From the NCBI GenBank assembly GCA_965224025.1, contig OZ245033.1:3296001-3360000 (forward strand): a stretch of DNA of 64,000 nt, given 5' to 3'. The notes under the pieces were generated by a model. The model had not been told where the DNA came from, ran no database searches, and saw nothing but the letters and a program-made list of their open reading frames with translations. The translations under genes were made by a program, and so were the position numbers. The DNA is from Candidatus Multivorans sp. (GTDB taxonomy: Bacteria > Acidobacteriota > Thermoanaerobaculia > Multivoradales > Multivoraceae). This document shows positions 572-17,348 of the stretch, one piece after another. Each line of letters starts with the position of its first letter. The stretch's first letter is position 1.

Positions 572-1343
572 TCAGGGGCCCTGCGAGTTGGCTCCTGGGC
601 TGGTCCCGCAGCCTGTCCAGCCGTTCTCGCGCCAACACCGCTGCATTGCATTCAAGTGGGCTTGGCAATGGGGATTGACTCTCGGATCCGTGCTTTGTCC
701 ATCGCAGGCGTCGTACCAACGGTGCTGGTGTTCTTCGCAACCTCGGACGTGTCGCGACTTGACGCATAGTGCCTGCAACATCGGATGTGCCGCCCAGATC
801 GAAGCAAAGTGATCCTCAGTCAACTCAGACCTCGGTGGACTCTCCCGGCAATCCTTGTCGGTCCCAACTTTCGCCATCGCCGTCTTCATGGACGGCCTGG
901 AGGATTTTTCCCGGTTCGGTCTCGGCGTCGAGGTTCTCAAGTGTCTTCTCGAATCTCTGGCGGTCGAGTCTTCTCTTGATGCGCAGCATCTCGTAGAGCT
1001 GCATCGTACGCTTGTCGTCGCCAATAGCCACGAAGGCTTCCAGTTCGGAGCGAATGGCGGAGAGTTGTGGCGGATCACTGAGAGCGGCCTCAACCGCTTC
1101 TCGGTCTCGGTGCCCAAACCGTAGCGCCTCGTGGAAGTCGAGTAGTTCGGTAGCTTGCATCCGGTCCAGTTCTTGAAAGAGTCGATGCCGTGCGGCAATC
1201 GGATCTTCAAGTTCCGGCAGCAGAGCCGGACGGGACAACTCCATGACCGGAGTAGGAAGCTCCGTGGTGGGCTGGGTGCCAGAAAGTGAAGCGCCAAATG
1301 TCAAGACGAGCATCGCTCCGACGATGGGCAGAAGTCGTGTCAT
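572..1343 (-). CDS. Orphan secreted protein with helical N-domain and Cys/His-rich C-domain, split by a +1 frameshift at ~863-865
   Basis: Signal peptide MTRLLPIVGAMLVLTFGASLS (ATG 1343, GGAG SD). Frame 825..1361 joins frame 572..1297 at TGG(G)ACC giving W-TDKDCRESP. Homologous to 40299..41104. Confidence 0.65.
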
Positions 1344-1388
1344 GCAGGAGTCTCCGTTCATGAACGGACCGGCAGATCCTACAGGAGA

Positions 1389-2516
1389 CTACCGTCGCCA
1401 GGGAGCGAAGCCAGTCACCGTCCCGAACCGCGCGTGGAAGGCGGTGCTGGGAAGTTCTTCCAGGGAGTTCCCGCGGTAGACGAAGAGGAGGGCGGCGATG
1501 TCGTTCTCGTTCGCCCAGCGCAGGCCTTCCTGGGGACCCAGGACGATCAGGGCGGTGGCGTAGGCGTCGGCCACGGCGCAGCTCTCGTGGAGCACGCTGG
1601 CCGAGGCGAGGGCGTGTTCCACTGGCCGGCCGGTCCGGGGATCGATCGTGTGGGAGTAGCGGACGCCGTCCCGTTCCCAGTAGTTCCGGTAGTCGCCAGA
1701 GGTGGCCAGGGATCCGTCGGTGAAGGAGAGGACTTTCCGCAGGCTGGCCTCCATGTCGTCCCCCGTGGCGGGAGGTGAGGCGGTTGACCCGGGATCGGTC
1801 GAGCGAGCCGACGGACGTTCGATCGCAATGCGCCACGGGTCGCCGGTACGACTGTGGCCGGCGGTGCGTACTTCGCCGCCGATCTCGACCAGGTGGTTGG
1901 CGTAGCCGGCGTTGGTCAGGTCCTCGGAGACCCGGTCCACGGCCCAGCCCTTGGCGACGGCCGAGAGATCGAGCGCGGCGCCGGGATGGAGCTTGACAAG
2001 TCGTCGGTCGGCGGGCGACGGCTCGATTGCGCCCACGGCCTTCGCCAACTCGGTCAGGCGATCCTCGCCTGGAGGGATCGGTTCTGCGTCTCGTCCCGGC
2101 GCGCCGAACCCCCAGGCGTCGACCAGTGGCCCCACCGTGGGATCGAACGCGCCGCCGCTCTCTTCGCGCACTCGCCAGGCAAGCTCCAGAACCGCCCAGG
2201 TGTCCTTCGAGAAGACGAACGACTCCCCGGCCGCCAGCCGATTGAAGCGGGAGAGCTCCGAGTCGTCGCGCCAGGTCGACATCGCCCGGTCCACCGCATC
2301 CAGCCGTTGCTCGACGAGGCCCTGGATCGCCTCGCGATCGCCGGTCTCCGCGATGACGCGAACCCGGTAGTGGGTCCCCATCGTCGGCCCCTGGAGCACG
2401 ATTTCTTCGTGTGCCTGCGCACAGCCCAGGACCAGGCCGGCCAGGACCACGAGCGGCGTCCAACGGCACCTGGGACCCCTCCCACCGGGCCCGAGCCTGG
2501 CGGGTGCTGGGTACAC
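1389..2516 (-). CDS. apbE: FAD:protein FMN transferase ApbE
   Basis: TMGT, SELSRFN, GAFDPTVGPL, LDLSAVAKG, EIGGE, ATSGDYRNY, YSHTIDPRTG, ADAYATAL motifs; lipobox-like LGC; true start may be slightly downstream. Confidence 0.95.
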   Translation of the reverse strand: MYPAPARLGPGGRGPRCRWTPLVVLAGLVLGCAQAHEEIVLQGPTMGTHYRVRVIAETGDREAIQGLVEQRLDAVDRAMSTWRDDSELSRFNRLAAGESFVFSKDTWAVLELAWRVREESGGAFDPTVGPLVDAWGFGAPGRDAEPIPPGEDRLTELAKAVGAIEPSPADRRLVKLHPGAALDLSAVAKGWAVDRVSEDLTNAGYANHLVEIGGEVRTAGHSRTGDPWRIAIERPSARSTDPGSTASPPATGDDMEASLRKVLSFTDGSLATSGDYRNYWERDGVRYSHTIDPRTGRPVEHALASASVLHESCAVADAYATALIVLGPQEGLRWANENDIAALLFVYRGNSLEELPSTAFHARFGTVTGFAPWRR

Positions 2517-2532
2517 CCAGCCGCGCAGCCGC

Positions 2533-3753
2533 CTAGCCGAAGTCGTCGAAGGCGATGTTCTCAGGCTCGACTCCCAGGTCGTCGAGCATCTTCATGCAGG
2601 CCTGGAGCATCAGCGGCGGTCCGCAGAGGTAGTACTCGACGTCTTCCGGACAGGGGTGGTCCTTCAGGTAGTTGTCGTACAGGACCTGGTGGATGAATCC
2701 GGTGTAGCCCTCCCAGTGATCCTCTTCGAGCGGGTCGGAGAGCGCGAGATGCCAGGTGAAGTTCGGGTTCTCGGCCGCGATGCGGTCGAAGTGATCGGTG
2801 TAGAAGGCTTCGCGGTAGGAGCGGGCGCCGTACCAGAAGGACACCTTGCGGTCGGTGTGGAGCCGCTGGAACTGGTCGAAGATGTGGGAGCGCATGGGCG
2901 CCATGCCGGCGCCGCCGCCGACGAACACCATCTCGGCATCGGTCTCCTTGGCGAAGAACTCGCCGAAGGGGCCGGCGATCGTCACGTCGTCGCCCGGATT
3001 CAGGTCGAAGATGTAGGACGACATCTGACCGGGCGGAAGGTCCATCTCGCGCGGCGGCGGCGTCGCCACCCGGACGTTCAACATGATGATGCCCTTCTCC
3101 TCCGGGTAGTTCGCCATCGAGTAGGCGCGGACCACGGTCTCGTCGACCCTGGAGACCAGGTTCCAGAGCTTGAAGCGGTCCCAGTCCTCGTGGTAGTCGT
3201 CCTCGATCTGGAAGTTGCTGTAGTTCGCCACGTGCGGAGGGCACTCGATCTGGATGTAGCCGCCGGCTTGAAAGGGCACCTCTTCGCCGGCCGGCAGCTC
3301 GAGGATCAGCTCCTTGATAAACGTGGCGACGTTCTCATTCGAGCGCACGGTGCACTGCCACTTCTTGACTCCGAAGATCTCGGCGGGGACCGCGATCTTC
3401 ATGTCCTCCTTGATCTTCACCTGGCAGCTCAGGCGGCAGCCCTCGCGGGCCTCGCGGCGGCTGATGTGGGTCTTCTCGGTCGGCAGCATCGCGCCGCCGC
3501 CGTCGAGCACGTCGACGGTGCACACGCCGCAGGTGCCCTGTCCGCCGCAGGCCGAGGGGATGAAGATCTGGTGCTCGGCGAGCGTGTTGAGCAGGGTGCC
3601 GCCGGTCGTGGAGGTCAGCGTCTTCTCGTCGTTGATCAGGATCGAGACCTCGTCGCCGGCGACCAGACGGGCCTTGGCCTGCATCAGGATCAGGACGAGA
3701 GCCAGGTTGACGACCGTGAACATCACCACCCCGAGCAGGGCTTCGGTGATCAC
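2533..3753 (-). CDS. nqrF: Na+-translocating NADH:quinone reductase subunit F
   Basis: [12 protein letters not shown]...RLSCQ [2Fe-2S], [28 protein letters not shown], terminal FDDFG. Confidence 0.97.
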
Positions 3754-4367
3754 AGTTGGATGCCTCCGAAGGCCATGAAGCCGAAGGCCATCAGTCCGGT
3801 GATGACGAACGTCATGCCCAGGCCGCGCAGGCCGTGGGGCACGTTGCTGTAGCGCAGGCGCTCGCGGATCGACGCCAGGGAGACGATGGCCAGGAACCAG
3901 CCGATGCCGGAGCCGAAGCCGAAGACCACGCTCTCGCCGAAGTCGTAGTCACGCTCGACCATGAACAGCGAGCCGCCCAGGATCGCGCAGTTCACCGCGA
4001 TCAGGGGCAGGAAGATGCCCAGGGTGGCGTGGAGCGCCGGGAAGAAGCGGTCGGTCGTCATCTCCACGAGCTGGACCATCGCGGCGATCGTGCCGATGAA
4101 GCAGAGCAAGTTCAGGAAGGTCAGGTCGACATCGGCGAACTCAGGGCTGATCCACGAAAGAGCTCCTTCGCTCAGGAGGTGGGTCTGAATCAGGTTGTTG
4201 GCCGGCACGGTGACGGTGAGCACGAAGATGACCGCCAGACCGAGCCCGACCGCGGTCTCGACCTTCTTCGACACCGCCAGGAACGAGCACATCCCGAGAA
4301 AGAAGGTCAGCGCCATGTTCTCGACGAAGATGGCCTTGACCGCGAGGTTGAGGTATTCCTCGAACAT
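3750..4367 (-). CDS. nqrE: Na+-NQR subunit E
   Basis: [34 protein letters not shown]. Confidence 0.97.
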
Positions 4368-4382
4368 CGTTTCGAACCCCCT

Positions 4383-5009
4383 TTACCCGTCCATCTCGAC
4401 CTGGGCGGGCTTCCAGACGCGGAGCGCCCAGATCAATCCGCCGATGATGAAGAAGGCGGCCGGCGACAGCAGCATCAGGCCGTTCGGCAGGTACCAGCCG
4501 CCCTCCGACACCGTGGGCAGGATGGAGTAGCCGTACAGCTTCCCGGAGCCGAACAGTTCCCTCAGCACCGCCGTGGCCATCAGGATCGCGCTGTAGCCGA
4601 GACCGTTGCCGATGCCGTCGAGGATCGCCAGCGAGGGCGGGTTCTGCATCGCGAACGCCTCGGCCCGGCCCATGATGATGCAGTTCGTGATGATCAGCCC
4701 CACGAACACCGAGAGCTGCTTGCTGATCTCGTACACGTAGGCCTTCAGGATCTGGTCGGTGACGATGACGAGCGAGGCGATCACGGTCAACTGGACGATG
4801 ATCCGGATGCTGTTCGGGATCTGGTGGCGGAGCAGGCTGACCGTGAGGTTGGAGAGGGTGAGCACGCAGACGACCGCCACGCACATGACGAGCGACGTTT
4901 CCATCTTCGTGGTCACCGCGAGCGCCGAGCAGATGCCGAGCACCTGGAGCGCGATCGGGTTGTTGTTCCAGAGCGGATCGAGCGCCGCTTCGCTCTTCTT
5001 GACTGCCAT
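4383..5009 (-). CDS. nqrD: Na+-NQR subunit D
   Basis: [38 protein letters not shown]; start moved to ATG 5009 overlapping the nqrC stop. Confidence 0.97.
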
Positions 5010-5791
5010 CAGTTCGCCTCCGCCCGGATTCGGGCGAGATACGGCTCGAAGCCGTTCTCGCCGAGCCAGAAGTTGAGCATGTTCGTCACTCCATTGCTCG
5101 TGATCGTCGCGCCGCTCAGACCGTCGACGCGGAAGGGGTCCTCTTCCGCACTGGCGGCCTGACCCTTGATCACCGCCAGTTGGAACTCGCCGTTCGCGTC
5201 GAACGCGCGGCGTCCCTGCCACCGCGCCTTCCAGCGCGGGTTGTCCACCTCGCCGCCCAGCCCCGGCGTTTCCTTGTGCAGGTAGTAGGTGATGCCGCGC
5301 ACGGTCGTCGCGTCCGCGTCGAGCGCCAGGAAGCCGTAGAGGGTGCCCCAGAGCCCCAGGCCCTCGATCGGCAGCACGATCATCTCGAGTTCGCCGTCGT
5401 CGCCCCTCACCTCGTAGAGCAGGGCCTGATCGGGAAGGCGCTTGACGCTGGCCTTGTTCTTCGGAAGCTCGACGCTGGTGGAAGGATTCCGGGCTCGCCG
5501 CTGCTGATCGAACGTTGCCGTGTCGGCGTCGGTCTGCGCTTCGCCGGTCGCGAGGTCGATGATCACCGGTTTGACCGGTTCGAAACGCTCGGCCACCTCT
5601 TCCGGCGTCACCCGCTCGCCGGGCTGGAGCAGGCCCACCGCCTCCAGCACGCGCTTCTGCTTGTCGAGCGCGGCGTTCTCATCCTGGCGCGGCTCCAGGC
5701 TGACCGCGAAAGAGGACACGAGAATGCCGCAGACGATGCATATCGCCATCGCGAACAGGAGGATGTAGCCGGTGGCCTGTCGGTCTGCCAT
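5009..5791 (-). CDS. nqrC: Na+-NQR subunit C
   Basis: [24 protein letters not shown] (FMN-Thr motif). Confidence 0.97.
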
Positions 5792-5814
5792 TCGAGTATT
5801 GCCGGTCGGGAACT

Positions 5815-7143
5815 CTACTGAGCGTAACGTGCCTTTCGGCGCTTGACGTTCGCCTTGAGCACGTAGTGGTCGATCAGGGGCGCGAACAGGTTCATGAACA
5901 GGATGCCGAGCATCACGCCTTCCGGGAAGGCGGGGTTCACGGTGCGGATCAGGATCGCCAGCACGCCGACCAGGAAGCCGTAGATGTACCGGCCGCGGTT
6001 CGTCTGCGCCGCGCTCACCGGATCGGTGGCCATAAACACCATCCCGAAGGCCCAGCCGCCGAGCACGACATGCCAGTGGAAGGGCACGGAGAGCATCGGA
6101 TTCGTCGTCGACACGACCAGGTTGAGCAGCAGGGAGATGGCCAGCGAGCCGGCGGTGGCGGCGACCATGATGCGCCAGGAGCCGATGCCGGTGGCAATCA
6201 GGATCGCGGCGCCGATCAGGCAGGCGAGGGTCGAGGTCTCGCCCATCGAACCCGGGATGTCGCCCAGGAAGGCCTGCATCCAGGACACGTCGCCCGTGAT
6301 CGCGTCCAGGCCGTTCAACGCGGCGGTGCCCGCTTCCGGGACAGCTTCCTGTGCAGCGACGGCGTCGAGGGTGGTGGAGCTTGAATCGGCGGCGCTCGAG
6401 CCTTCATCGGCCTCATGCACCGCGATGGCGCCGAGCGCCGTGGCGCCGCTGTACCCGTCGGGGGGGGCCGAGGTGCCCGCCGCGATCCATACCGCGTCGC
6501 CCGAGATCTGGGCCGGATAGGCGAAGAACAGGAACACGCGCGCGGTAAGCGCCGGGTTCAGCACGTTGTAGCCGGTGCCGCCGAAGATCTCCTTGCCCAC
6601 CACGACGCCGAAGGTGATGCCGATCGCGACCTGCCAGAGCGGGATGGTCGGCGGCAGCACCAGCGGAAAGAGCATGCCCGTGACCAGGAAGCCCTCGTTG
6701 ATGTCGTGGCGGCGGACGACCGCGAACAGCCCCTCCCAGGCGCCGCCGACGGCGAAGGTCACGATCAGGACCGGCAGGTAGTAGAGCGCGCCGTGGACCG
6801 AGTTGGCGAGCACGCTGCTCGCGTCGAACGGCAGCCCCAGCATCTCCATCGCGTCGGTGCGCCAGTTGGGCAGGGCCGTGGCGCCGCCCGCGATCGCCAG
6901 GTGGATCTGCCGTCCCGTGTTGAACATGGCCATCAGCACGCAGGGCACCAGCGCGACGACGACCGTCATCATCAGGCGCTTCAGGTCCAACGCGTCACGC
7001 ACGTGCGCGGCGCCGGCGGTCGTCTTGCCGGGCGTGTACAGGAAGGTGTCGGGCGCTTCGTAGAGAGGGTAGAAGCGCTCGAACCTGCCGCCGCGCTCGA
7101 AGTGGCGGGCCTGGCGGTCGAGGATTTTGCGCAGGAACTTCAT
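5815..7143 (-). CDS. nqrB: Na+-NQR subunit B
   Basis: [38 protein letters not shown] (FMN-Thr), [15 protein letters not shown]; start ATG 7143 (MKFLRK). Confidence 0.97.
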
Positions 7144-8726: not shown

Positions 8727-9020
8727 GTGCAGCGCGATGCCGAAGGCCGCAGGCAGCTCGTTCTGCAGGCCGACGAGGCGATCTACCTCCATCCGTCTCG
8801 GGATCGTCCATCTGGCCTGTACGTCGACGTAGGTAGCGACTCGTTGCCCGACGTCGTCCTCGAAGTCGACTTCTCCACGGACGTTCGCCGCGGCCGTTGT
8901 GGCCGCGCCGGCAAGCTCGCCGACTACGCGGCTTGGGGGCTGCGGGAGATCTGGGTCGAAGTGCCCGACACGGTGAGATCCACGGGTCGCCGCCGGCCCG
9001 GTCTGACCATCTTCCTGCAT
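8727..9020 (+). pseudogene. Truncated Uma2-family (DUF820) endonuclease fragment
   Basis: LQADEAIYLHP...PDVVLEVDFSTDVRR..KLADYAAWGLREIWVEVPD...RRPGLTI parallels the central part of the downstream gene; both termini are missing. Confidence 0.7.
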
Positions 9021-9078
9021 CGCGGGGCGTGGGCGCACGGGACACTGCCTTGCAGGTCCGCCTTGATAGCATCGCTCC

Positions 9079-10080
9079 ATGGATGCTCCGGCAGGCTCGA
9101 CGGCAGCCGCGAACCTCCTGACGGATCATGATCGGACCGGCGGTCTCCTCGGCGGGTGGCTCCGCGCGTACTACGGCTGCGAGACCGTGCCGATGACGGT
9201 GGCGGAGTACGACGACGAGGAGAACGAAGGGCGCCGCGTCGAGTGCTGGGATTCGGTCACGGAGACGGCGCAAATCCTGTGCGAGGGCGCCACCCTGCAG
9301 CACGAAGTAGCGGCGACCCGGTTGGTGCAACTGGTCCGGTCGATCGCCTACGCCCGAGGCTCGGCGATCGTTTCGGCCGGTTCCACTGACATCGTCTCGC
9401 GGAACGACGAGGGTCAGAGGTTCTGCCTGGAAGCCGACGCGACGATCTACCTGCATCCCGGGCGGGATCTGCCGGCCGGCCGATACATCGAGGTCGCGAG
9501 CGATGCGCTTCCGGACCTCGTCCTCGAGGTCGATCACACCACGAACGTGCGCCATCGCCGCCGGCGCGGCCAGCGGAGCAAGCTGGACGATTACGCCGCG
9601 CTCGGTATCCCGGAGTTGTGGGTCGAAGTGCCCGACTCATCCAGGACCCGCGGCCGGCGCCGACCCGGCCTGAGCATTCTGCTGTTGGAAGGCGATGGGT
9701 ACCAAGCGTCGTCGGCGAGCCGGGCGTTTGCGGGCTGGACAGCCGCGGAGATCCACAGCGCCCTGAACGAGCGGGAAGAGTCCGCCGAGACGGCCTCCGT
9801 CCTGCGACGGGTGGGCCGGACGATGGGCGCCGCCGAAGGCACCGGGCCGGACGACGATCCGTTCCTTCGGCAGGAGCGCAGGGAAGCCGCCGCGAACCTC
9901 GTCCGCGCGGCGGTTTCCGAGGCGTTCGTTTCGCGCGGCATCCCGGTTTCGGACGCGTTGAAGCAATGGCTCGTAGGATCCGAGAATCCGTCCGATCCGG
10001 CAGGGGTGATTCGACTCGCGTTCACTTGCCGGGATGCGGACGAGTTTCTGAAGAGGGTCGAAGCAGCGAAACGCGGCTGA
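9079..10080 (+). CDS. Uma2-family (PD-(D/E)XK-like) endonuclease
   Basis: EADATIYL, PDLVLEVDHT, KLDDYAALGIPELW. Confidence 0.85.
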   Translation: MDAPAGSTAAANLLTDHDRTGGLLGGWLRAYYGCETVPMTVAEYDDEENEGRRVECWDSVTETAQILCEGATLQHEVAATRLVQLVRSIAYARGSAIVSAGSTDIVSRNDEGQRFCLEADATIYLHPGRDLPAGRYIEVASDALPDLVLEVDHTTNVRHRRRRGQRSKLDDYAALGIPELWVEVPDSSRTRGRRRPGLSILLLEGDGYQASSASRAFAGWTAAEIHSALNEREESAETASVLRRVGRTMGAAEGTGPDDDPFLRQERREAAANLVRAAVSEAFVSRGIPVSDALKQWLVGSENPSDPAGVIRLAFTCRDADEFLKRVEAAKRG

Positions 10081-10172: not shown

Positions 10173-11279
10173 CTATGCTCCCAGCAGCACCGGATGAAGT
10201 GCTTCCCTTGGCTTCAGGGGCTTGATGTGGGCAAGCTTGTTTCGAGCCGCTCGCAACCGCCTCGCCTCGCCCATGACCTTCCCGTTCGGGGGTCCGTGTA
10301 GCTGGAAGTAGTAGAGCAATGGGCCGAGTTCCAGGTCATCCGCTTCCTCAAAGCGCCCCAGTTCGGTCTCGAACGGCAGCTTGAAGTGGGTCCGGTGGCG
10401 GTCGATCAACTCCACCCGCCGCTCCTCCAGCAACGGCATGAGCACGGAGGCTTGCGCTGCCCACAGCCTGCGATCCAGTTCCGCCTCGCGACCCTGGATC
10501 GCCAGCAGCGCGGAATGGACGACCGGCCGACTCCGCGGTCCGTCGACCGTGCCGACTTCCCAGTCCTCGACTGTCTCGGCGATCCAGCCTCGGCCCTTCG
10601 CGTAGCTCTTGAGGATCGCCCAGGGCTGCAGGGCGCTCTGCAGGTCGGTCTCCAGCATCTGCTCGGCCAAGGAATGATCCCACTGCGAAACGTGAGCCAC
10701 CGAGTTCGCCCGGAGGGCGCGGCTCATTCGATGGCGGGAGGAGCCACGACTATCCTCGTGTTGTAGCGCCATTACGTAGAGATCGTCGCGGTGAACCACA
10801 TCCCGGAACTTCCGATGGGTTACCGCCACATCCGACAGGTCGGGTTGCTGGAAACCCGCGCCCTGGAGCGGTACGACGAGCGCCGTGCGTCGGTCTTCGG
10901 GCACGTGATTCCGGCTGGCGTCGGAGTAGGCCAGCAGAAAAGTCCTCCAGGCGGGCCAGCTTTCCGGCGAAACGCCGCTCACCCAGATCAGCCGCTCTTG
11001 GAAGTGCTTTAGGCGGACGAGGTCCGCCACGCTCGCGACCTTTGTTTCCTGCCCCTGTGATGGGAGCACCCGGCGAATGGCCGCAAGAGGGGGAGCCTCT
11101 AGCCCGGCGTCGAGTTCCGACCACCGGAAACCCCAGTGACAGTGCCGTTCGAGTTCTTCGGCGAGACCGTCGGGAATGGCGCTGCCACAGTGGACAACTA
11201 CGCTGGAGCCGTTCCGAAGCTCGTCACCGATGGAGCGGACGAATCGGGCCGGGCCCGGGAGCTGCCAGAGAGACTGCAT
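10173..11279 (-). CDS. Protein with degenerate P-loop-like N-terminus and C-terminal HEPN-type RNase motif
   Basis: C-terminal LELGPL...RLRAARNKLAH (R-x4-H, nt 10227-10244); N-terminal SVVV and RLIWVSG strands without GK[ST]; 24 bp downstream of the giant NTPase. Confidence 0.7.
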   Translation of the reverse strand: MQSLWQLPGPARFVRSIGDELRNGSSVVVHCGSAIPDGLAEELERHCHWGFRWSELDAGLEAPPLAAIRRVLPSQGQETKVASVADLVRLKHFQERLIWVSGVSPESWPAWRTFLLAYSDASRNHVPEDRRTALVVPLQGAGFQQPDLSDVAVTHRKFRDVVHRDDLYVMALQHEDSRGSSRHRMSRALRANSVAHVSQWDHSLAEQMLETDLQSALQPWAILKSYAKGRGWIAETVEDWEVGTVDGPRSRPVVHSALLAIQGREAELDRRLWAAQASVLMPLLEERRVELIDRHRTHFKLPFETELGRFEEADDLELGPLLYYFQLHGPPNGKVMGEARRLRAARNKLAHIKPLKPREALHPVLLGA

Positions 11280-11303
11280 GGGCCTCTCAGTTCCCTGCCG
11301 AAC

Positions 11304-14300
11304 TCACAGCAGTTTCCTGACGACCGGATCGATCTGCCAGTCGTCCGCGTCGCTTCGCCGTACAAGATGGAGTTTCTCAGCCACCCAGAGGGCGGAGCGA
11401 AGTTCGTCGTCGTTCAACTCGCAGTCGATGAGGTCGCGGGTCTCCGGGTCGAGAAGACTCTCGAGATTCGCGGAGCCGTGTGCGTCCAGAAGGCGTAAGG
11501 TCTCCGACAACGGGTGAAGATCCAGCCCGAACGCTGGCCGAAGGCGGTCGGCGCTCTCGGTGAGCACCCGATCGAAGCCGCTCGGGTCGACGAGGTCGGA
11601 TGGCTTGGTGTCGCCCTGAAGCCGCTGGACGATCAGCTCGATCAGGATCGGCCAACCGCCCGCGTTGTTCGCGAGTTGCATCTCATCTTCGGGCTTGAGC
11701 TTCTTGCCCACGGCGGAATCTTCGTCCAGACAGACAGCCGCAAAGCCCGGATCCCAAGGCCTGAGAGAGACTAGATCGACGTCTCCCTGGGCCAGCCACC
11801 CGTCCATTGCGTTCTGATGGGAAACCAACTGGCCTGGATCGAGAGCGAAGACGACGCGGGCAAACTTCTCGCGTGATCGGAGGTTACCCAGCAGGCGAAG
11901 CGCTTCGTCGACCCACTGTCCTTCCCAGCCGCCAGGAACGATGATCAGCGTCGTCTCGTGGCCACGGGCGTCGAGACGCCGCTTCAGTTCCTTCCTGAAA
12001 TCGTCGACGCTCGGCGTCGGCTCCAGGAGAATCGCTTCACCTCGTTCCTTCCCCCACTGCAGGAAACTCGCCACGTTCCCTAGTCCCGCCGCCTCTGGTC
12101 CGCAGACCAGGACGACGGCGTTCCCCCGTTGACGGGCGAGCCGATGTGCCGAGTCACCGTGGCCGGAGATCCGACGTTCCTGCCAGAGCGTCAGGGGGCG
12201 GGAACGGGGCCCCTTGTCGTCATGGCGTCTCCGGATCTCGAAGGGTCCGGGTTCCGGAGACGCAGGTCTCTTCTCGAACGATGCCAGCCGTTCCTCAATG
12301 TCGTCCTTGCGGCCAAGCAACGACAATACGTTCGGATTCCGCAGGCTGAAGCGGCGGCGGTCTGTTCCGCCGTACGTGCGACGAAGAACGCCTAGCTCGA
12401 CCATCTCGTCGAGCAACGCCCTGAAGTGTTCCGACTCCCTGTCGCTCTCCTCGAAACCCTGGGGCCACCATACGCGGACGTGACGAAGGACTCGGTCGTC
12501 CCCGATCCCTTTCCGCAGAAGGTCCCGGTCCTCGAGACAGGCGAACGCCACGGTGTAGGCGATCGCCTCGTAGCGCGGGTCGAGCTGGAGCGTCCACTCG
12601 AACCGTTGTCGGATCTCCCTTCCCAGTTCGCGGTCTCGTTGAAGAGCCTCCAGAAGATCGGGACCGATCGCTCGAACTGGAGAACCGGTAGACGCCGACG
12701 GGGCGGAGAGCCGGTTGACCAGCGTGGCGCCGTAGATCTGGAGAAGACTCGGATAGTAATTGGCGCGCGCGAGAACGCTGGTTGCAAGCCGCGTCGGTTC
12801 GAAGCGGTAACCGCAGGCATCGAGCGGCGCACAAAGCAATTCGTGGGCGAATCCGCGTTCCTCCCTTTCGATGAATGGCCCGATCCCGATTGGCCGCTCC
12901 ATATGAGCCAACGGGTGGTTCGACTGGGTAGTCGTGCGCACGACGTTGTGCAGGCCGGCGAAGACCACCTTGATCGAACGATCCTCGTCCATTAGGGACT
13001 TCAGGCGCGTCGACTCGGCGAAAGTCTCACGGCTGCTGTTCATGGCGTCTCGCTGCAGGAAGCGGTCCGCCTCATCAAAGAGCAGCAGGAGGGACTTCCC
13101 TGCAGTGCGGTTGAACTGTCTGAGGAGTGCGTCCCTGAACGCATCGACGTTCCGTCTGGTCGGCTGTCTGGTGCTCTCGTCGATCGCGTCGATGCGCCGG
13201 AGAGCCCGCCACATCGCGACCCAAATGTCCGACGTGTGTTCTTCGCCAACGCCCTCGGCCTTGAGATCGATCCAGGCCGCGAAGCGGCCCTCCGCGGGGT
13301 TCATGAATTCCCGCTCCACGTGTCTCAGCAGAGCGGTCTTGCCCAACTGGCGGCCACCGTAGACCAAGCAGGACCCTCTCTCGAAGTCCTGAATCTCCGT
13401 CACTTCGGCTTCGCGTCCGAAGAACATCTCCGGCGGCACTCGTCCTGCGCGCGGCACGAAGGGCTGGTTCCAGGTGAATGGAAGCGCACAGGCGAAGAAG
13501 GCAGCCAGCCGGGAACCGGACTGGGCGGCCATGAAGATGAGGAGCGGCTCGTCGAGAGTGACCAGCGTCAGCGATTGTTCGTCGCTCAGGCGCGCCAGTC
13601 GCATGTGGGTGCGCTCGCCGACCGGATTGAGGCAGATTGCGATTACGGCTTCCCTGCCCGCCTGCTGGAGGCGCTGGAGAATCGTCTCGGCGGTGGGCGG
13701 TCGGAAGAAGATCAGAAGCCTGTAGTTTCCGTTGGCCTCCGAGCCGAAGTGGGGCACCGGACAGTCATTGCGGCTCCTGAGTGCGGACGCCGTCATCCGG
13801 GCACTTGCGAATTCTCCTGACGCCTGCTCAACGTGAACGGAGACGTCCAGGAAGCCTCCAAGGTTCGAGAACAGTCCTCGGGTCGCTTTCCCGATGGCTT
13901 GCCGGTCTGTTGGGCGGCATCGCTTGAGCGCGCTCCAGCCGTCGAGCAGAGTGGCCGCGGACGCTCGTTCGTTCTGGTCGAGGCGATCGAAGCGCAGTGG
14001 GCCGAGCCGCTTGCCCTGTTTGGCAGAGTCGCGCAGGTTCGGCCAGTCCTCCCCGATCTCTCGCAGGCGTTTGCGGCCGATCGTGCGATGGGTGTCGCGA
14101 AGGCTCGGCCGCTTCGCTCTCTCGTCGCCGAACGCCGCGTGGTCGTCACCGGAGCGGTGGAGGAGCTCGTACGCCGTAACCAGATCGCCGTCGTCGATGT
14201 GCCGTTCGATTCTCACGCGCCGCGGGTCATCCGCGTCCGGGTATGCAGCATGAGCCTCGGCTCGGGCTGCGCTCAGGCTGGCCTGGCTGGCCGCCTCCAG

Positions 14301-17300
14301 TTCCCCCCGGACAGAATTGAGTTCGCCGTTCTCGTGGTTGAAGCGGACGGCCGTTTCCTCCCGGACCACTCTCTCGACGGAATCAAGTCGCGCTTCCAGG
14401 TCAGTGCGTTGCTCCTGCTCGATCTGCCCTTGGGCAAAGGCCAGATCAAGGCGATCGCGTACCTCCTCCAGCTCGGTTCGGAGCGAATCGAGCTGCTCCT
14501 GCTGGGTGCCGTGGATTCTCTGTTTCCAGGAATCGACGGCGCCGTTCTTCATGTCGCCTTCAGTTGTAAGCCAGTCCAGAATGTGCCGGGCCGTGTTGGT
14601 CTCACCGCTTTCTATGTTCCTTGCGAGAGCCTCGTTCAGTGGAAGCGGTTCTGCGTTCAGGAGCACGTCCAGTGCCGCTTCGGGATCGCCTTCGACGAGG
14701 CCACGCTCGTCTATTCGCAGGTCGGGGAAGCCGAAGAGCCCCGAGGCCAGGAGCGGTCGCGGATCGGGTTCATCCGCTTGCGGGCCGACGGTCGCGGGGT
14801 CTACCAACTGATCGACCAGCCTGAGCGACCGGAGCGCAACCGAGCTAGCCGCCCGAGTGAGGGCATGCTGTCGGTGTTCGGCCGCGATCGTTCCCAGTGC
14901 CGACTGCAGCGTCGGCGAGCCGCGTCGCAGCGCGCCGACCAGGTCGTCGATGACCTTCTTCAGGTGGCCGCCACCGGCTTCCGGCGCCGCCTCCATGGAC
15001 AGGTACCGTCGCGAGAGTTCGAGAGGCTCGCGGAGGTGACGCCTGAATTGTCGGAAGATCTTCGTGTCGACGCTTTGGCCATGCGATAGAACCTCATGCG
15101 CTAGGCGGTCGACGATCTTTCGCAGGTGCGACTCGTCCTCCAACTCGGCGAGCAGTCGGCGTACCTCCCCGTGTCCGCCCTGAGTGCGAATCGCTTCGAC
15201 CAGCCGACCGAGCTCGCCCGACGTGGAGAGCGCACGCCATACCTTGTTCGCGGGGGTGTAGGACAACGGACTCTTGGCTGGGCCTTCGCGCCAGGCATCT
15301 ACGTCTTGCAGCAGTTTCAAGAGTGCGTCTTTGTGGGTGGCCTGGTCCCTTGCCGTATGGAGGAGAGTCTCGGCGTCAATCCGCGCCTTCTGGACTTCCC
15401 AACTCCGGGCAGCGATCTCTTGGGCAAATCGGTAGAGCGGGTCGAGCCCCTCATGGACGAGGTCCTGGAGGAGAGAGGTTGCACCGGAGTAGGGCGCCAG
15501 CAACACCGCCGGCATGGCCGCAGCGAAGGAGATCAACGCCTCGGCGTTGATCGAGTCAGACTCCCGGTCGGTCAGGGCCTCCGCCGATGGCGCCTCCTCG
15601 ATCGCTAGTTCATACTCGGCGGACAGACGGCTGTTCGGGCGTGCGAACCGGCTTGCGTAGAGGGCTGCCTCAAGCAGCGCGGCCTGCGGCAGGCCGGCGT
15701 CGATCCCGAGTTCTTCGAGCAGGCGGCAGACGTGCGTCGCGTAGGCAAGGCGGGGCGGATCGGCGGCAAACGCGCGGGCAACCGCCTCTCGGGCGTCCAC
15801 GTGCACGCCGGGCTCGTCGGTCTTTGGCACGGCTTCGGCCTGGTCCCACTCAGGCGATGGCGGAGCGGCGGGCTGTTCCTCGGCCGGAACAGAGTCTTCC
15901 TCGGTGACGGAGGGTGCTCCGGTCTCCTCGGCGGCCACCGGCGATGCTGCGACCGTCGGTTCCTCCGGCGCTTTCGAGTCGGTGGGTTCGCCGCCGTCGC
16001 CGTCGCTCGGCGGGTCGACGCCCGTAGCGACCGGACGAGTAGTTTCGCCCTCGGCAGGTTCGGGTTCACCGGCATCGAACGCCGGCGCCAGCGCCTCGAT
16101 CAGAGCATCCTCCGCGGCTCGTCGTTCACGGCGGCGGCGGGTCGCCTCTTCCCGGAGATCGTCTCGCTCGTCGCGCCAGCCGCGGAGGGCCTGTCTATCC
16201 GAAGGGCGATTGGCGCGGAGCGTGTCGAGCCTGTCTTCCACCTCCCGGTGCTGCGTATCGGACTGTCGCAGATTCTCAACCAGTTGGCCGACCTCGCTCC
16301 GAAGGCGCTCGGTCTCTGCACCGGCCCTGGTCGGGTTGAGGGCAGGAATGCCCAACCAGGCGCCACGAAGTCGTTCAAGCTCTTCGGGATCGACCTCTTC
16401 GCTGGCTGGCTCTCTCTCGATTCTGTCCACGAGCGTACGCGCGAGAGACTGGAGTTCCTCGGTCGCGGTCTTGGCCTTCTGGATCTGTTCGACGCGTTCC
16501 TCGATCTCTTCGAGGTCGGCGATTGCTTGCCGCAACTCGTCGAGGACATCCAAGGCAGGCGGCTTCTCGGTCGCCTCCGTGGCGATAGCCGCCAGCGACT
16601 GGAGCCCCTCGCGCCAGGCAGCCTCGGTTGCCGCACCCCCTTCCGAGGGGGCCGCTCCGTCGCTGTCCCGGCTCACGAAGTCGGCGCCCGACGCCGACGT
16701 CTGGTCCTGTTCTTCGGCTGGAGCGGGAACTTCACCATGCGACTGCTCGTTGACGGGTTCGGGCGCGAGCACTTCGGCGTACTCCTCCTGAAGCTCGGGA
16801 ACCCGGGAGCCGGCCTTGTGCAGGATGCCGTGGTCGTCCAGGACGGTGGCCAGACAGAAGAGCTCGACCGTCTTCCACTCCCGCTCCGCCGTCGCCAGCG
16901 ATGGCCAGTCCTCCAGCCCTTGGAGCAGCTCGGTCGCCGTCTCCCGCAGCCTTGCGCGGTCGGGGGGCTTGTCGTTGCCGCCAGCGGCAGCTTCCGCCGT
17001 CTCGGACGATGCTTCGTCGAAGTACTTCCGGAGGACGTTGATCTCGAGACTCGGCGGCGTCTTGGAGTTGGGAGCGCCTTCGGCGTTCGGCCCATCGAGC
17101 CAAGTCTTCCAGAGTTCTCGGCGGTGGGCGGGGTTTCCGTAGAAGGCGAACATTCGTCTACGGTCGTAGTCGCCCGGCTTGCCGCTGTCAGGACCCAGGT
17201 CTCCGATACGGGCACGCACGAACTCGCGATCCAGAAGGCGGCGACGTTTGGCGCGGTTCAGGTACAGAGGCCGCTGGAGCTTCGCCAAGCCGGTCAGGCA

Positions 17301-17348
17301 GCGCGGGAGTCCATGCCCGAGCGCCAGACGGCGTTCCTGATCCTTCAT
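11304..17348 (-). CDS. Giant (2014 aa) STAND/AAA-type P-loop NTPase
   Basis: NQPF...PPEMFFGREAE, Walker A YGGRQLGKT (~13335-13360), Walker B LLLLFDEAD (~13065-13090), NYYPSLLQ; long helical/coiled N-terminus; second degenerate module (VVLVCGPEAAGL...GGWPILI). Confidence 0.85.
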   Translation of the reverse strand: MKDQERRLALGHGLPRCLTGLAKLQRPLYLNRAKRRRLLDREFVRARIGDLGPDSGKPGDYDRRRMFAFYGNPAHRRELWKTWLDGPNAEGAPNSKTPPSLEINVLRKYFDEASSETAEAAAGGNDKPPDRARLRETATELLQGLEDWPSLATAEREWKTVELFCLATVLDDHGILHKAGSRVPELQEEYAEVLAPEPVNEQSHGEVPAPAEEQDQTSASGADFVSRDSDGAAPSEGGAATEAAWREGLQSLAAIATEATEKPPALDVLDELRQAIADLEEIEERVEQIQKAKTATEELQSLARTLVDRIEREPASEEVDPEELERLRGAWLGIPALNPTRAGAETERLRSEVGQLVENLRQSDTQHREVEDRLDTLRANRPSDRQALRGWRDERDDLREEATRRRRERRAAEDALIEALAPAFDAGEPEPAEGETTRPVATGVDPPSDGDGGEPTDSKAPEEPTVAASPVAAEETGAPSVTEEDSVPAEEQPAAPPSPEWDQAEAVPKTDEPGVHVDAREAVARAFAADPPRLAYATHVCRLLEELGIDAGLPQAALLEAALYASRFARPNSRLSAEYELAIEEAPSAEALTDRESDSINAEALISFAAAMPAVLLAPYSGATSLLQDLVHEGLDPLYRFAQEIAARSWEVQKARIDAETLLHTARDQATHKDALLKLLQDVDAWREGPAKSPLSYTPANKVWRALSTSGELGRLVEAIRTQGGHGEVRRLLAELEDESHLRKIVDRLAHEVLSHGQSVDTKIFRQFRRHLREPLELSRRYLSMEAAPEAGGGHLKKVIDDLVGALRRGSPTLQSALGTIAAEHRQHALTRAASSVALRSLRLVDQLVDPATVGPQADEPDPRPLLASGLFGFPDLRIDERGLVEGDPEAALDVLLNAEPLPLNEALARNIESGETNTARHILDWLTTEGDMKNGAVDSWKQRIHGTQQEQLDSLRTELEEVRDRLDLAFAQGQIEQEQRTDLEARLDSVERVVREETAVRFNHENGELNSVRGELEAASQASLSAARAEAHAAYPDADDPRRVRIERHIDDGDLVTAYELLHRSGDDHAAFGDERAKRPSLRDTHRTIGRKRLREIGEDWPNLRDSAKQGKRLGPLRFDRLDQNERASAATLLDGWSALKRCRPTDRQAIGKATRGLFSNLGGFLDVSVHVEQASGEFASARMTASALRSRNDCPVPHFGSEANGNYRLLIFFRPPTAETILQRLQQAGREAVIAICLNPVGERTHMRLARLSDEQSLTLVTLDEPLLIFMAAQSGSRLAAFFACALPFTWNQPFVPRAGRVPPEMFFGREAEVTEIQDFERGSCLVYGGRQLGKTALLRHVEREFMNPAEGRFAAWIDLKAEGVGEEHTSDIWVAMWRALRRIDAIDESTRQPTRRNVDAFRDALLRQFNRTAGKSLLLLFDEADRFLQRDAMNSSRETFAESTRLKSLMDEDRSIKVVFAGLHNVVRTTTQSNHPLAHMERPIGIGPFIEREERGFAHELLCAPLDACGYRFEPTRLATSVLARANYYPSLLQIYGATLVNRLSAPSASTGSPVRAIGPDLLEALQRDRELGREIRQRFEWTLQLDPRYEAIAYTVAFACLEDRDLLRKGIGDDRVLRHVRVWWPQGFEESDRESEHFRALLDEMVELGVLRRTYGGTDRRRFSLRNPNVLSLLGRKDDIEERLASFEKRPASPEPGPFEIRRRHDDKGPRSRPLTLWQERRISGHGDSAHRLARQRGNAVVLVCGPEAAGLGNVASFLQWGKERGEAILLEPTPSVDDFRKELKRRLDARGHETTLIIVPGGWEGQWVDEALRLLGNLRSREKFARVVFALDPGQLVSHQNAMDGWLAQGDVDLVSLRPWDPGFAAVCLDEDSAVGKKLKPEDEMQLANNAGGWPILIELIVQRLQGDTKPSDLVDPSGFDRVLTESADRLRPAFGLDLHPLSETLRLLDAHGSANLESLLDPETRDLIDCELNDDELRSALWVAEKLHLVRRSDADDWQIDPVVRKLL

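Follow-up and report, generated by a model that had tools for sequence, protein, structure and literature searches.

What is the function of a gene for a protein of 2014 amino acids (aa) that is followed at once by a gene for a protein of 368 aa, when both lie between an iron-sulfur gene and a gene of the Uma2 family? This question is raised by a locus of Candidatus Multivorans sp. (Acidobacteriota; assembly GCA_965224025.1, contig OZ245033.1), located within the window, which is the whole stretch of 64,000 nucleotides (nt) that was analysed. The two genes, referred to here as the giant and the small gene, are read from the minus strand, as are all of their features given below: the giant gene occupies 11304..17348 and the small gene 10173..11279 (stop codons included), with an intergenic spacer of 24 nt (11280..11303). 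A first-pass annotation had described two open reading frames (ORFs) of these sizes and with this gap, placed them between nfuA and Uma2, and proposed that a STAND sensor activates a separately encoded HEPN RNase; the list of ORFs and the coordinates of the motifs bear out the sizes and positions, and Pfam identifies the flanks as a protein with NifU and Fe-S_biosyn domains (NfuA) upstream and the product of a convergent Uma2 gene downstream. The evidence presented here argues, with a probability of roughly 0.6, that the pair is a mobile two-gene conflict system, most likely directed against phages, in which an active STAND switch is combined with a protein that joins an inactive STAND domain to an effector.

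The giant and small genes form a strict operon-like module. Relatives were collected by two routes, 19 genome loci being picked through the RLWAAQA motif of the small protein and 80 metagenome loci through two motifs of the giant; these 99 loci collapse to 82 non-redundant ones. The genome loci belong to Acidobacteriota, Binatia, Burkholderiales, Azoarcus, Lysobacterales and one metagenome-assembled genome labelled Synechococcus; cultivable carriers among them include Pelomonas cellulosilytica P8, Paraburkholderia graminis C4D1M and Azoarcus sp. TTM-91. In all 19 genome loci the gene just upstream of the small gene is a giant homologue, and in 70 of the 80 metagenome loci the giant is followed at once by a small gene, every time with E<1e-24, so the co-conservation on which the first-pass proposal depended is observed by both routes. 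Among the other 10 metagenome loci, three are cut by the end of the contig (L059, L088, L117) and one has nothing in its remaining 635 nt (L049); in the rest the partner is replaced, five times by a protein with PLDc_2, SNF2 and Helicase_C domains (L060, L063, L068, L109, L116) and once by an unrelated UvdE (L125). The giant and the small gene are the only genes common to all 20 loci that were compared; no third conserved gene was found among them, and the flanking genes are heterogeneous on both sides. In the window, Shine-Dalgarno-like sites precede both start codons (GGAGG about 9 nt before the ATG of the giant, and GAGAGG, carried by the spacer, about 5 nt before the ATG of the small gene), and no terminator-like site was found between the two genes; elsewhere the genes abut or overlap. 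(It should be noted that a complex prediction using giant residues 1290-2014 and small-protein residues 1-255 gave a score of 0.00 and no verdict, and it counts neither way.)

Judged by its sequence motifs, the giant is an intact STAND-type ATPase. Its active STAND/AAA+ module comprises residues 1291-1690 (12279..13478) and consists of the ATPase core and a following region, which probably contains helical and winged-helix domains. Within this module lies the only part of the giant that is visible to Pfam (residues ~1309-1470), which matches AAA_22 at 28.9 bits (cut-off 27), AAA_16 at 28.8 bits (below its cut-off of 32.6) and also ATPase_2. When 16 giants from four phyla were scanned at E<=1, AAA_22 was found in 16, ATPase_2 in 13 and AAA_16 in 12, and the scan revealed no further recurrent family and no nuclease, peptidase or other enzyme. 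The Walker A motif GGRQLGKT (13335..13358) and the Walker B motif LLLFDEAD (13065..13088), which had been read off as intact at first pass, are present as described and are invariant in 16 of 16 giants, D1425, E1426, A1427 and D1428 being the invariant residues of the latter; a strand with the sequence VVFAGLHNV is invariant or nearly so in the same 16 homologues. Beyond the core, the motif NYYPSLLQ (residues 1530-1537; 12738..12761) is of the GxP type and belongs to the helical domain; seven of its eight residues are invariant (N1530, Y1531, Y1532, P1533, S1534, L1535 and Q1537), and position 1536 varies. A GxP-type motif in the helical domain that follows the ATPase core is reportedly the STAND criterion of Leipe et al. 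2004. The giant thus combines the STAND features of a Walker A motif of the form GxxxxGK[ST], a Walker B motif of the form hhhhD[DE], a match to an AAA+ profile and a GxP-type motif.

The partner of this ATPase appears to carry the same type of fold in an inactive form. An AlphaFold2 model of the small protein, built from an alignment with 26 homologues, has a predicted local distance difference test score (pLDDT) of 91 and a predicted template modelling score (pTM) of 0.85, and in it an AAA+/STAND fold spans residues 1 to ~250-265. A Foldseek search with this model returns Apaf-1, the archaeal STAND protein 6mfv, ORC, RFC and NLRs at E values of about 1e-4. However STAND-like the fold, the N-terminal domain has no GK[ST] after its first strand and hence no P-loop lysine, its consensus at this position being VVLRFGxxxPxGL. 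Therefore residues 1-250 (10530..11279) are predicted to be a nucleotide-blind domain of the STAND/ORC type with a helical lid, that is, an inactive STAND (iSTAND) core, to use a term found for inactive STAND domains in PMC7159879 and PMC12839542. The degenerate NTPase that had been suspected in the small protein is consequently confirmed at the level of the fold, by the model, by Foldseek and by the missing lysine. The sole invariant arginine of this domain is R123, and the giant has invariant R1457 and R1471; these are candidates for the arginine finger that is expected to be conserved in both proteins of an nSTAND2 system, the predicted system discussed at the end. The small protein has no sequence match in Pfam, PADLOC, NCBIfam or the PDB. 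Its relatives are nonetheless numerous: a HMMER scan of sequences that each represent a 50%-identity cluster collects 2507 of them with E<=0.001, and 697 with E<=1e-30. The best 150 range from 199 to 415 aa; most have 340-400 aa, and a few are shorter partial sequences.

The remainder of the small protein, residues 251-368 (10176..10529; ~119 residues, model pLDDT 93), is probably a minimal HEPN domain resembling those of Swt1 and Abi2, an assignment that begins with its R-x4-H motif. This motif, RNKLAH (10227..10244), contains the invariant residues R346, N347, L349, A350 and H351; RNxLAH is retained in 27 of 27 and in 18 of 18 small homologues at identities down to 27%, and a helix with the sequence RLWAAQA (10449-10469) is likewise invariant. 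HEPN_Swt1 (PF18731) is the only recurrent Pfam family. It is matched by 4 of 27 full-length homologues (best E 8.8e-4) and by 9 of 10 isolated C-terminal domains at the sub-threshold values of E 0.01-0.078; the best listed score is 16.6 bits, the Pfam cut-off of 27.5 bits is reached by none of the homologues listed, and the protein of the window itself has no match. All of the listed matches sit on the motif helix, and three of the 10 C-terminal domains also match DUF4145. Alignment of the C-terminal domain with 13 genuine HEPN_Swt1 domains by hhalign gives Prob 78.3% and E 1.8e-5 over only 27 columns round the motif; these genuine domains come from related genomes, and most of them have RN.WAH at the motif. 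A search of the Atlas ranked a neighbour cluster named 'Swt1-like HEPN' third with a score of 0.92 (the same search with the N-terminal domain of the small protein returned unnamed clusters only, at 0.87), and PbAbiF, Csm6, RnlA and a HEPN protein are among the VIA rows for the small protein. Thus, the earlier claim that RNKLAH marks a HEPN RNase stands with respect to the motif, an invariant R-x4-H of the Swt1-like type, and falls short with respect to the fold, for which the matches are sub-threshold or restricted to 27 columns. A genuine HEPN_Swt1 domain is present in the same genome outside the window (G000:C1:3973159-3973500, locus L030; 112.9 bits), where it starts a frame of 1112 aa, and proteins of this kind, about 1100-1350 aa long, occur in 19 of 61 related genomes; they are probably HEPN-DUF499-type ATPases of a BREX-related/Hma system.

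Outside its ATPase module the giant is a succession of regions that differ in conservation. A separate conserved domain at the N-terminus (residues 1-200; 16749..17348) has no assigned fold and no Pfam match, and it carries eight residues that are invariant in 16 of 16 giants (G13, L14, P15, W80, L106, L145, W148 and E189). A coiled-coil and low-complexity linker then follows (residues ~201-530; 15759..16748). It is the least conserved and gappiest part of the protein, particularly at ~200-250 and ~450-530, and its matches are exclusively to coiled-coil-type PDB entries and SMC-like proteins, with coiled-coil-like sequence at ~240-580; the first-pass view of the ~1300 aa ahead of the ATPase as helical, coiled and of low complexity is in keeping with these gaps and matches and with the absence of a Pfam match. 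From residue ~531 to the end conservation is strong. The helical region of residues 531-1290 (13479..15758), a candidate sensor without a family match, is conserved across phyla, and for 12 of the 19 genome loci the tblastn match sets in at about residue 531; just ahead of the ATPase it contains invariant R1193, C1196, G1202, S1203, G1207, Y1209 and D1266. At the other end, the C-terminal module (residues 1691-2014; 11307..12278) may be a second, dead STAND copy. Its motifs include VVLVCGPEAAG (12069-12125), TTLIIVPGG and GGWPILI (11640-11669), of which the GGWPxL element resembles the STAND GxP motif, and G1755, G1897 and W1899 are invariant. A second degenerate P-loop-like module had been proposed at first pass; this is upheld by the motifs (residues ~1740-1905) and is not upheld by profile comparison, since hhalign gave Prob 6% for a kinship with the ATPase of the giant itself and Prob 0.5% for one with nSTAND2. 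As a separate observation, GGWPxLLExL of the giant (11640-11669) resembles AQWDxxLAExLL of the small protein (10665-10700), and the two might mark the lids of paralogous inactive STAND domains; hhalign detects no relation between the C-terminal module and the small-protein profile (Prob 0.8%) or between the N-terminal domain of the small protein and the giant (Prob 0.7%). Searches with known systems and structures add little: in PADLOC the giant matches LmuB alone, through its coiled-coil part (E 0.046-0.095), the only NCBIfam match of the pair is ASRP at 17.3 bits with a cut-off of 300, and sequence and profile searches of the PDB with both proteins gave nothing significant beyond coiled-coil look-alikes and one P-loop stretch. 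Of 8000 candidates that were scored, 1334 are relatives of the giant at E<=0.001; wherever a source name is given, it is 'hypothetical protein'.

The pair is accessory, mobile and fast-changing. Of 36 other species-level genomes in the genus, 12 have the small gene; it was found in none of the 24 genomes that stand for other genera of the order, and a survey of 401 genomes from 227 genera across the phylum detected it in 7 genomes, belonging to 3 genera. Within the genus, its product reaches a best identity of 55%, and the adjacent NfuA is 82-93% identical in full-length matches. The pair has a G+C of 0.63-0.66 (vs 0.67-0.73 in the flanks), and nfuA ends 225 nt upstream. The junction downstream of nfuA was read in 30 genomes. 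It leads directly to nqrA in 15, to one or more Uma2 genes only (within the 1.5 kb examined) in seven, directly to the giant gene in five, to Uma2 followed by the giant in two, and to none of these in one; two genomes with Uma2-only junctions (G034, G019) retain fragments of the small gene nearby. These varied states indicate that the window pair occupies a variable nfuA/nqrA hotspot. Some congeners have the pair at a different site and some have two copies. Decay is seen as well: the small gene is frameshifted in L012 (9992-11011), the giant is split into two ORFs in L018 (3766-10004) and L006 (3881-9994), and small genes are truncated or fragmentary in the congeners G011, G013, G019, G024 and G034. 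Five plasmids, all typed as non-mobilizable, carry the pair; on pSR118 of Salinibacter ruber its neighbours are transposases, a gene for a DUF3320 protein and cas genes of type I-E, and RefSeq names its products (WP_162892365 and WP_162892366) 'ATP-binding protein' and 'hypothetical protein'. The pair of Thiodictyon pTs417 has the accessions WP_157818040 and WP_100922758. At the nfuA/nqrA junction, one or two genes of the restriction-endonuclease-like Uma2 family come and go with or without the pair (window 8727-10080, loci L126-L155); the window itself has a full Uma2 gene at 9079-10080 and an overlapping, shorter Uma2-like ORF at 8727-9131.

The company kept by the pair at other sites is often that of defence genes. 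Among the 96 nearest-neighbour ORFs of the non-redundant loci are WYL proteins (5), type I restriction endonucleases/HSDR_N (3), PDC-S68 (3), PDC-M48B (3), PDC-S01 (3), TniQ (3), ResIII (5), Helicase_C (5), rve (2) and phage integrases (2). When large flanking ORFs were examined singly, seven of eight proved to be PADLOC defence proteins, namely two PDC-S68 proteins, two type I restriction endonucleases, DruE, DruH and a TmtA-like protein. In two unrelated loci (L019:89-3772 and L090:146-3934), the gene just before the giant, in the same direction, is that of PDC-S68, a PADLOC candidate system whose protein has ~1230-1260 aa and a RecD-like core (E = 0); a third neighbour ORF matches it in the batch scan, and no paper on PDC-S68 was found in the literature. 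In addition, homologous ORFs of about 300-330 aa adjoin the pair in L016, L018, L082, L090 and L095, which are unrelated loci, and do so in either orientation.

Insight into how the family may be built comes from a subfamily in which the giant is fused to a sigma factor. Five giant relatives of 2343-2452 aa (L060:1533-8738, L063, L068:3052-10167, L109:220-7251 and L125:716-8071) differ from the window type at the N-terminus. Those of L060 and L125, which were scanned with Pfam, contain before the shared core, at residues ~190-500, a complete sigma-70, in which Sigma70_r1_2, r2, r3 and r4 are matched with E values between 1e-9 and 1e-23, and the L125 giant has in addition a weak match to DUF4391 at its N-terminus; those of L063, L068 and L109 match a local sigma profile. 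Homology to the window giant begins at window residue ~588-619. The fusion is found in 5 of the 80 metagenome loci (4 non-redundant), and a survey of one phylum (401 genomes) for such giants yielded little but ordinary RpoD matches. In four of the sigma-fused loci, and in L116, the place of the iSTAND-HEPN protein is taken by a protein of ~1094 aa with PLDc_2, SNF2/ResIII and Helicase_C domains (L060:8848-12129, L063:10352-13696, L068:10264-13539, L109:7470-10736 and L116:2912-3232). Another arrangement is seen in L101 (duplicate L103), in which a separate gene for a sigma-70 of the primary type (L101:2-586, cut by the start of the contig) stops some 15 nt short of a window-type giant (587-6892), and a small gene of the HEPN type then follows. 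The N-terminus of the window-type giant itself does not resemble sigma-70 (hhalign Prob 0.1%). These variants argue that both the N-terminal module and the effector subunit are exchangeable round a constant core; such exchangeable ends are typical of conflict systems, and the sigma link hints at contact with RNA polymerase. A bolder proposal, decidedly unlikely at present, is that the giant family is an immune platform of modular build that monitors the transcription machinery: the N-terminal module would attach to RNA polymerase or to promoter DNA, takeover of transcription by a phage would be the trigger, and the effector of the locus would then fire, this being the iSTAND-HEPN RNase in most loci and the PLD-SNF2 helicase-nuclease in the sigma-fused branch.

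Taken together, these results suggest a mechanism for the proposed anti-phage system. The giant would be sensor and switch at once, with the ~760 residues from 531 to 1290 as the presumed sensor and an ATP-competent, nSTAND2-like module behind it, and the small protein would be the effector subunit, docking through its dead STAND fold and acting through its HEPN-like domain. A trigger from the invader would release the giant, which would bind ATP and oligomerise; small subunits would then co-assemble through STAND-STAND contacts, two HEPN domains would be juxtaposed to form a composite R-x4-H site, and cleavage of RNA would stop the infected cell, by abortive infection or dormancy. The analysis shows the domain anatomy, the invariant motifs, the iSTAND fold, the strict pairing of the genes and their accessory setting; we infer the binding of the two proteins to each other, the trigger, the RNase activity and the defence phenotype. 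The reading as a defence system is plausible and better supported than before. Several points weigh against it. All of the evidence for it is computational; no relatives were found on viral contigs or in phage records; no fused giant-small protein and no longer form of the small protein was found (weak evidence); and in the model the helix expected after RNxLAH is very short. In the window, moreover, the pair adjoins housekeeping genes and Uma2, with no classical defence genes. The first-pass annotation had proposed a test for enrichment in defence islands; the pair often lies beside restriction, Druantia, WYL, CRISPR or transposase genes, and this association is qualitative, drawn without a control set.

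Other functions have to be weighed for the same pair of proteins. The small protein could be a non-catalytic adaptor or a receptor for nucleic acid, its RNxLAH helix binding RNA or protein, and the activity would then reside in giant residues 531-1290 or 1691-2014. This would make sense of the ~1600 giant residues that have no assigned function and of the invariant polar residues before the ATPase (R1193, C1196, S1203, Y1209 and D1266), and it agrees with an unproven HEPN fold in the small protein, with the proposal of iSTAND modules as sensors in PMC12839542 and PMC8195603, and with the description of Swt1 itself as a probably inactive HEPN in PMC3710099. However, an R-N-x-L-A-H that is invariant across phyla at identities of 27-55% resembles a catalytic motif, the 16 giants scanned at E<=1 contain no enzymatic family, and the corresponding partner slot of the sister subfamily holds an evident nuclease-helicase effector; an adaptor role is accordingly unlikely.

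Quite improbable is a selfish addiction or stress module of the toxin-antitoxin kind, in which the giant would restrain a HEPN toxin and the pair would persist by its mobility. We know of no precedent for an ATP-dependent antitoxin of 2000 aa with conserved Walker motifs; the toxin gene would lie downstream of the giant gene, the five carrier plasmids are typed as non-mobilizable, and the flanks are often bona fide defence systems, although toxin-antitoxin pairs gather in islands too. What such a module would explain is the patchy distribution, the insertion at a hotspot, the carriage by plasmids and the decay into fragments, and HEPN domains are commonly the toxins of toxin-antitoxin pairs according to PMC3710099. 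Hardly better are the prospects of a regulatory device of transcription or RNA metabolism, in which the giant would act on RNA polymerase or transcripts and the HEPN-like subunit would process specific RNAs. The sigma-70 that stands N-terminal to the core in one subfamily, the separate sigma-70 gene ~15 nt ahead of the giant in L101/L103 and the housekeeping surroundings of the window pair are what this idea has to offer, and large ATP-binding regulators of the LuxR type or MalT offer a comparison. Yet the sigma fusion is restricted to 5 of 80 loci, where it comes with a PLD-SNF2 helicase or with no partner, and the N-terminus of the window type is dissimilar to sigma; furthermore, a housekeeping regulator is unlikely to be absent from 24 of 36 congeners, or to be 55% identical where NfuA is 93% identical.

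If the pair does protect its hosts from phages, the catalogue gains a widespread system. Neither protein is named in Pfam, NCBIfam, PADLOC or RefSeq, although the small protein has 2507 cluster representatives and the giant more than 1000 relatives. It also provides a handle on a question of the STAND/NLR field, the role of inactive STAND subunits: the dead STAND fold is possibly the plug by which an oligomer of active STAND proteins is linked to an effector encoded in trans, an idea proposed for nSTAND2 in 2021. The sigma-70-fused relatives, for their part, could link the giant family to RNA polymerase.

How does the pair compare with known systems? It lies outside those named in PADLOC, as a profile scan with no system match confirms. 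Avs proteins are single chains with the effector at the N-terminus and a repeat sensor at the C-terminus. The pair shares with them a STAND ATPase as switch, nuclease-type effectors being common among them; no PADLOC Avs model matches it, ~1300 residues precede the ATPase, and the candidate effector is on a separate chain with a dead STAND. The MoxR-vWA ternary systems described by Kaur et al., eLife 2020 (PMC7159879) contain an iSTAND fused to variable effector or adaptor domains, and so resemble the pair in having an inactive STAND protein joined to such a domain in a conflict system; no MoxR or vWA gene accompanies the pair, however, and its active ATPase is itself a STAND protein. A closer likeness is to BREX. 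According to PMC12839542, BrxC is an ORC/Cdc6-STAND AAA+ ATPase that works with the inactive STAND protein BrxB, as the giant may with its small partner; Swt1-like HEPN domains are often fused to DUF499 ('Hma'/BR) ATPases (PMC3710099 and PMC12839542), and 'Type-2 BR' systems have as their effector an HKD(PLD)-SNF2 helicase (again PMC12839542), which the PLD-SNF2 partner of the sigma-fused subfamily resembles. Unlike BREX, however, the conserved two-gene module contains no methyltransferase and no PglZ or PglX in 20 loci, neither protein matches PADLOC BrxC or BrxB, and the 16 giants have no DUF499 match in Pfam.

The closest counterpart is nSTAND2. According to PMC8195603 (Kaur et al., eLife 2021), this is a computationally predicted, mobile two-gene conflict system in which both proteins are novel STAND NTPases, one of them with eroded NTP motifs and fused to GT4 or HEPN, and the authors suggest a toroidal hetero-multimer of both proteins. 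The first-pass annotation could not assign the locus to a named system; that view has to be given up to the extent that the design of an active STAND with an inactive STAND-HEPN was predicted there under this name. The pair has the same mobile two-gene operon, with one active and one eroded STAND module; the domain fused to the eroded one is probably a HEPN. Moreover, the giant ATPase aligns with nSTAND2 domains over 193 columns (hhalign Prob 96.6%, E 6.8e-10) that cover Walker A, Walker B and the YPSLLQ/FPFxLQ motif, and a control alignment with HEPN-linked ATPases of related genomes, which are probably DUF499-like, gives Prob 0.5%. The differences are nevertheless considerable. PF20702, the curated nSTAND2 model (cut-off 24 bits), finds nothing in the entire genome at E<=1 and is absent from the matches of 16 giants (E<=1) and 27 small homologues (E<=10). 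Genuine nSTAND2 domains, found in 27 of 401 genomes of the phylum, are in frames mostly of 558-936 aa, with one of 1520 aa, plus fragments, and none is near 2014 aa. In six of 10 nSTAND2 loci that were fetched, a co-directional frame of 287-460 aa lies directly upstream, so that the gene order looks reversed, and these upstream ORFs do not match the small-protein profiles; the iSTAND of the small protein itself compares with the nSTAND2 profile at Prob 0.2%. None of the 99 loci of the pair revealed a GT4 partner, and a HEPN-like C-terminus is the only type found in them. In the titles and abstracts found with the term nSTAND2, no follow-up on bacterial systems appears beyond the 2021 paper, and no paper was found that joins a Swt1-like HEPN with STAND, or that describes sigma-70 fused to STAND together with HEPN; the accession tables of PMC8195603 may already include the giant branch. 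Since PF20702 is silent but hhalign links the ATPases, the pair is therefore placed as a divergent, giant variant that would work like nSTAND2 and is not a member by the curated model. Consequently, the general two-gene design is already known, and what is new here is its giant, widespread and unannotated variant.

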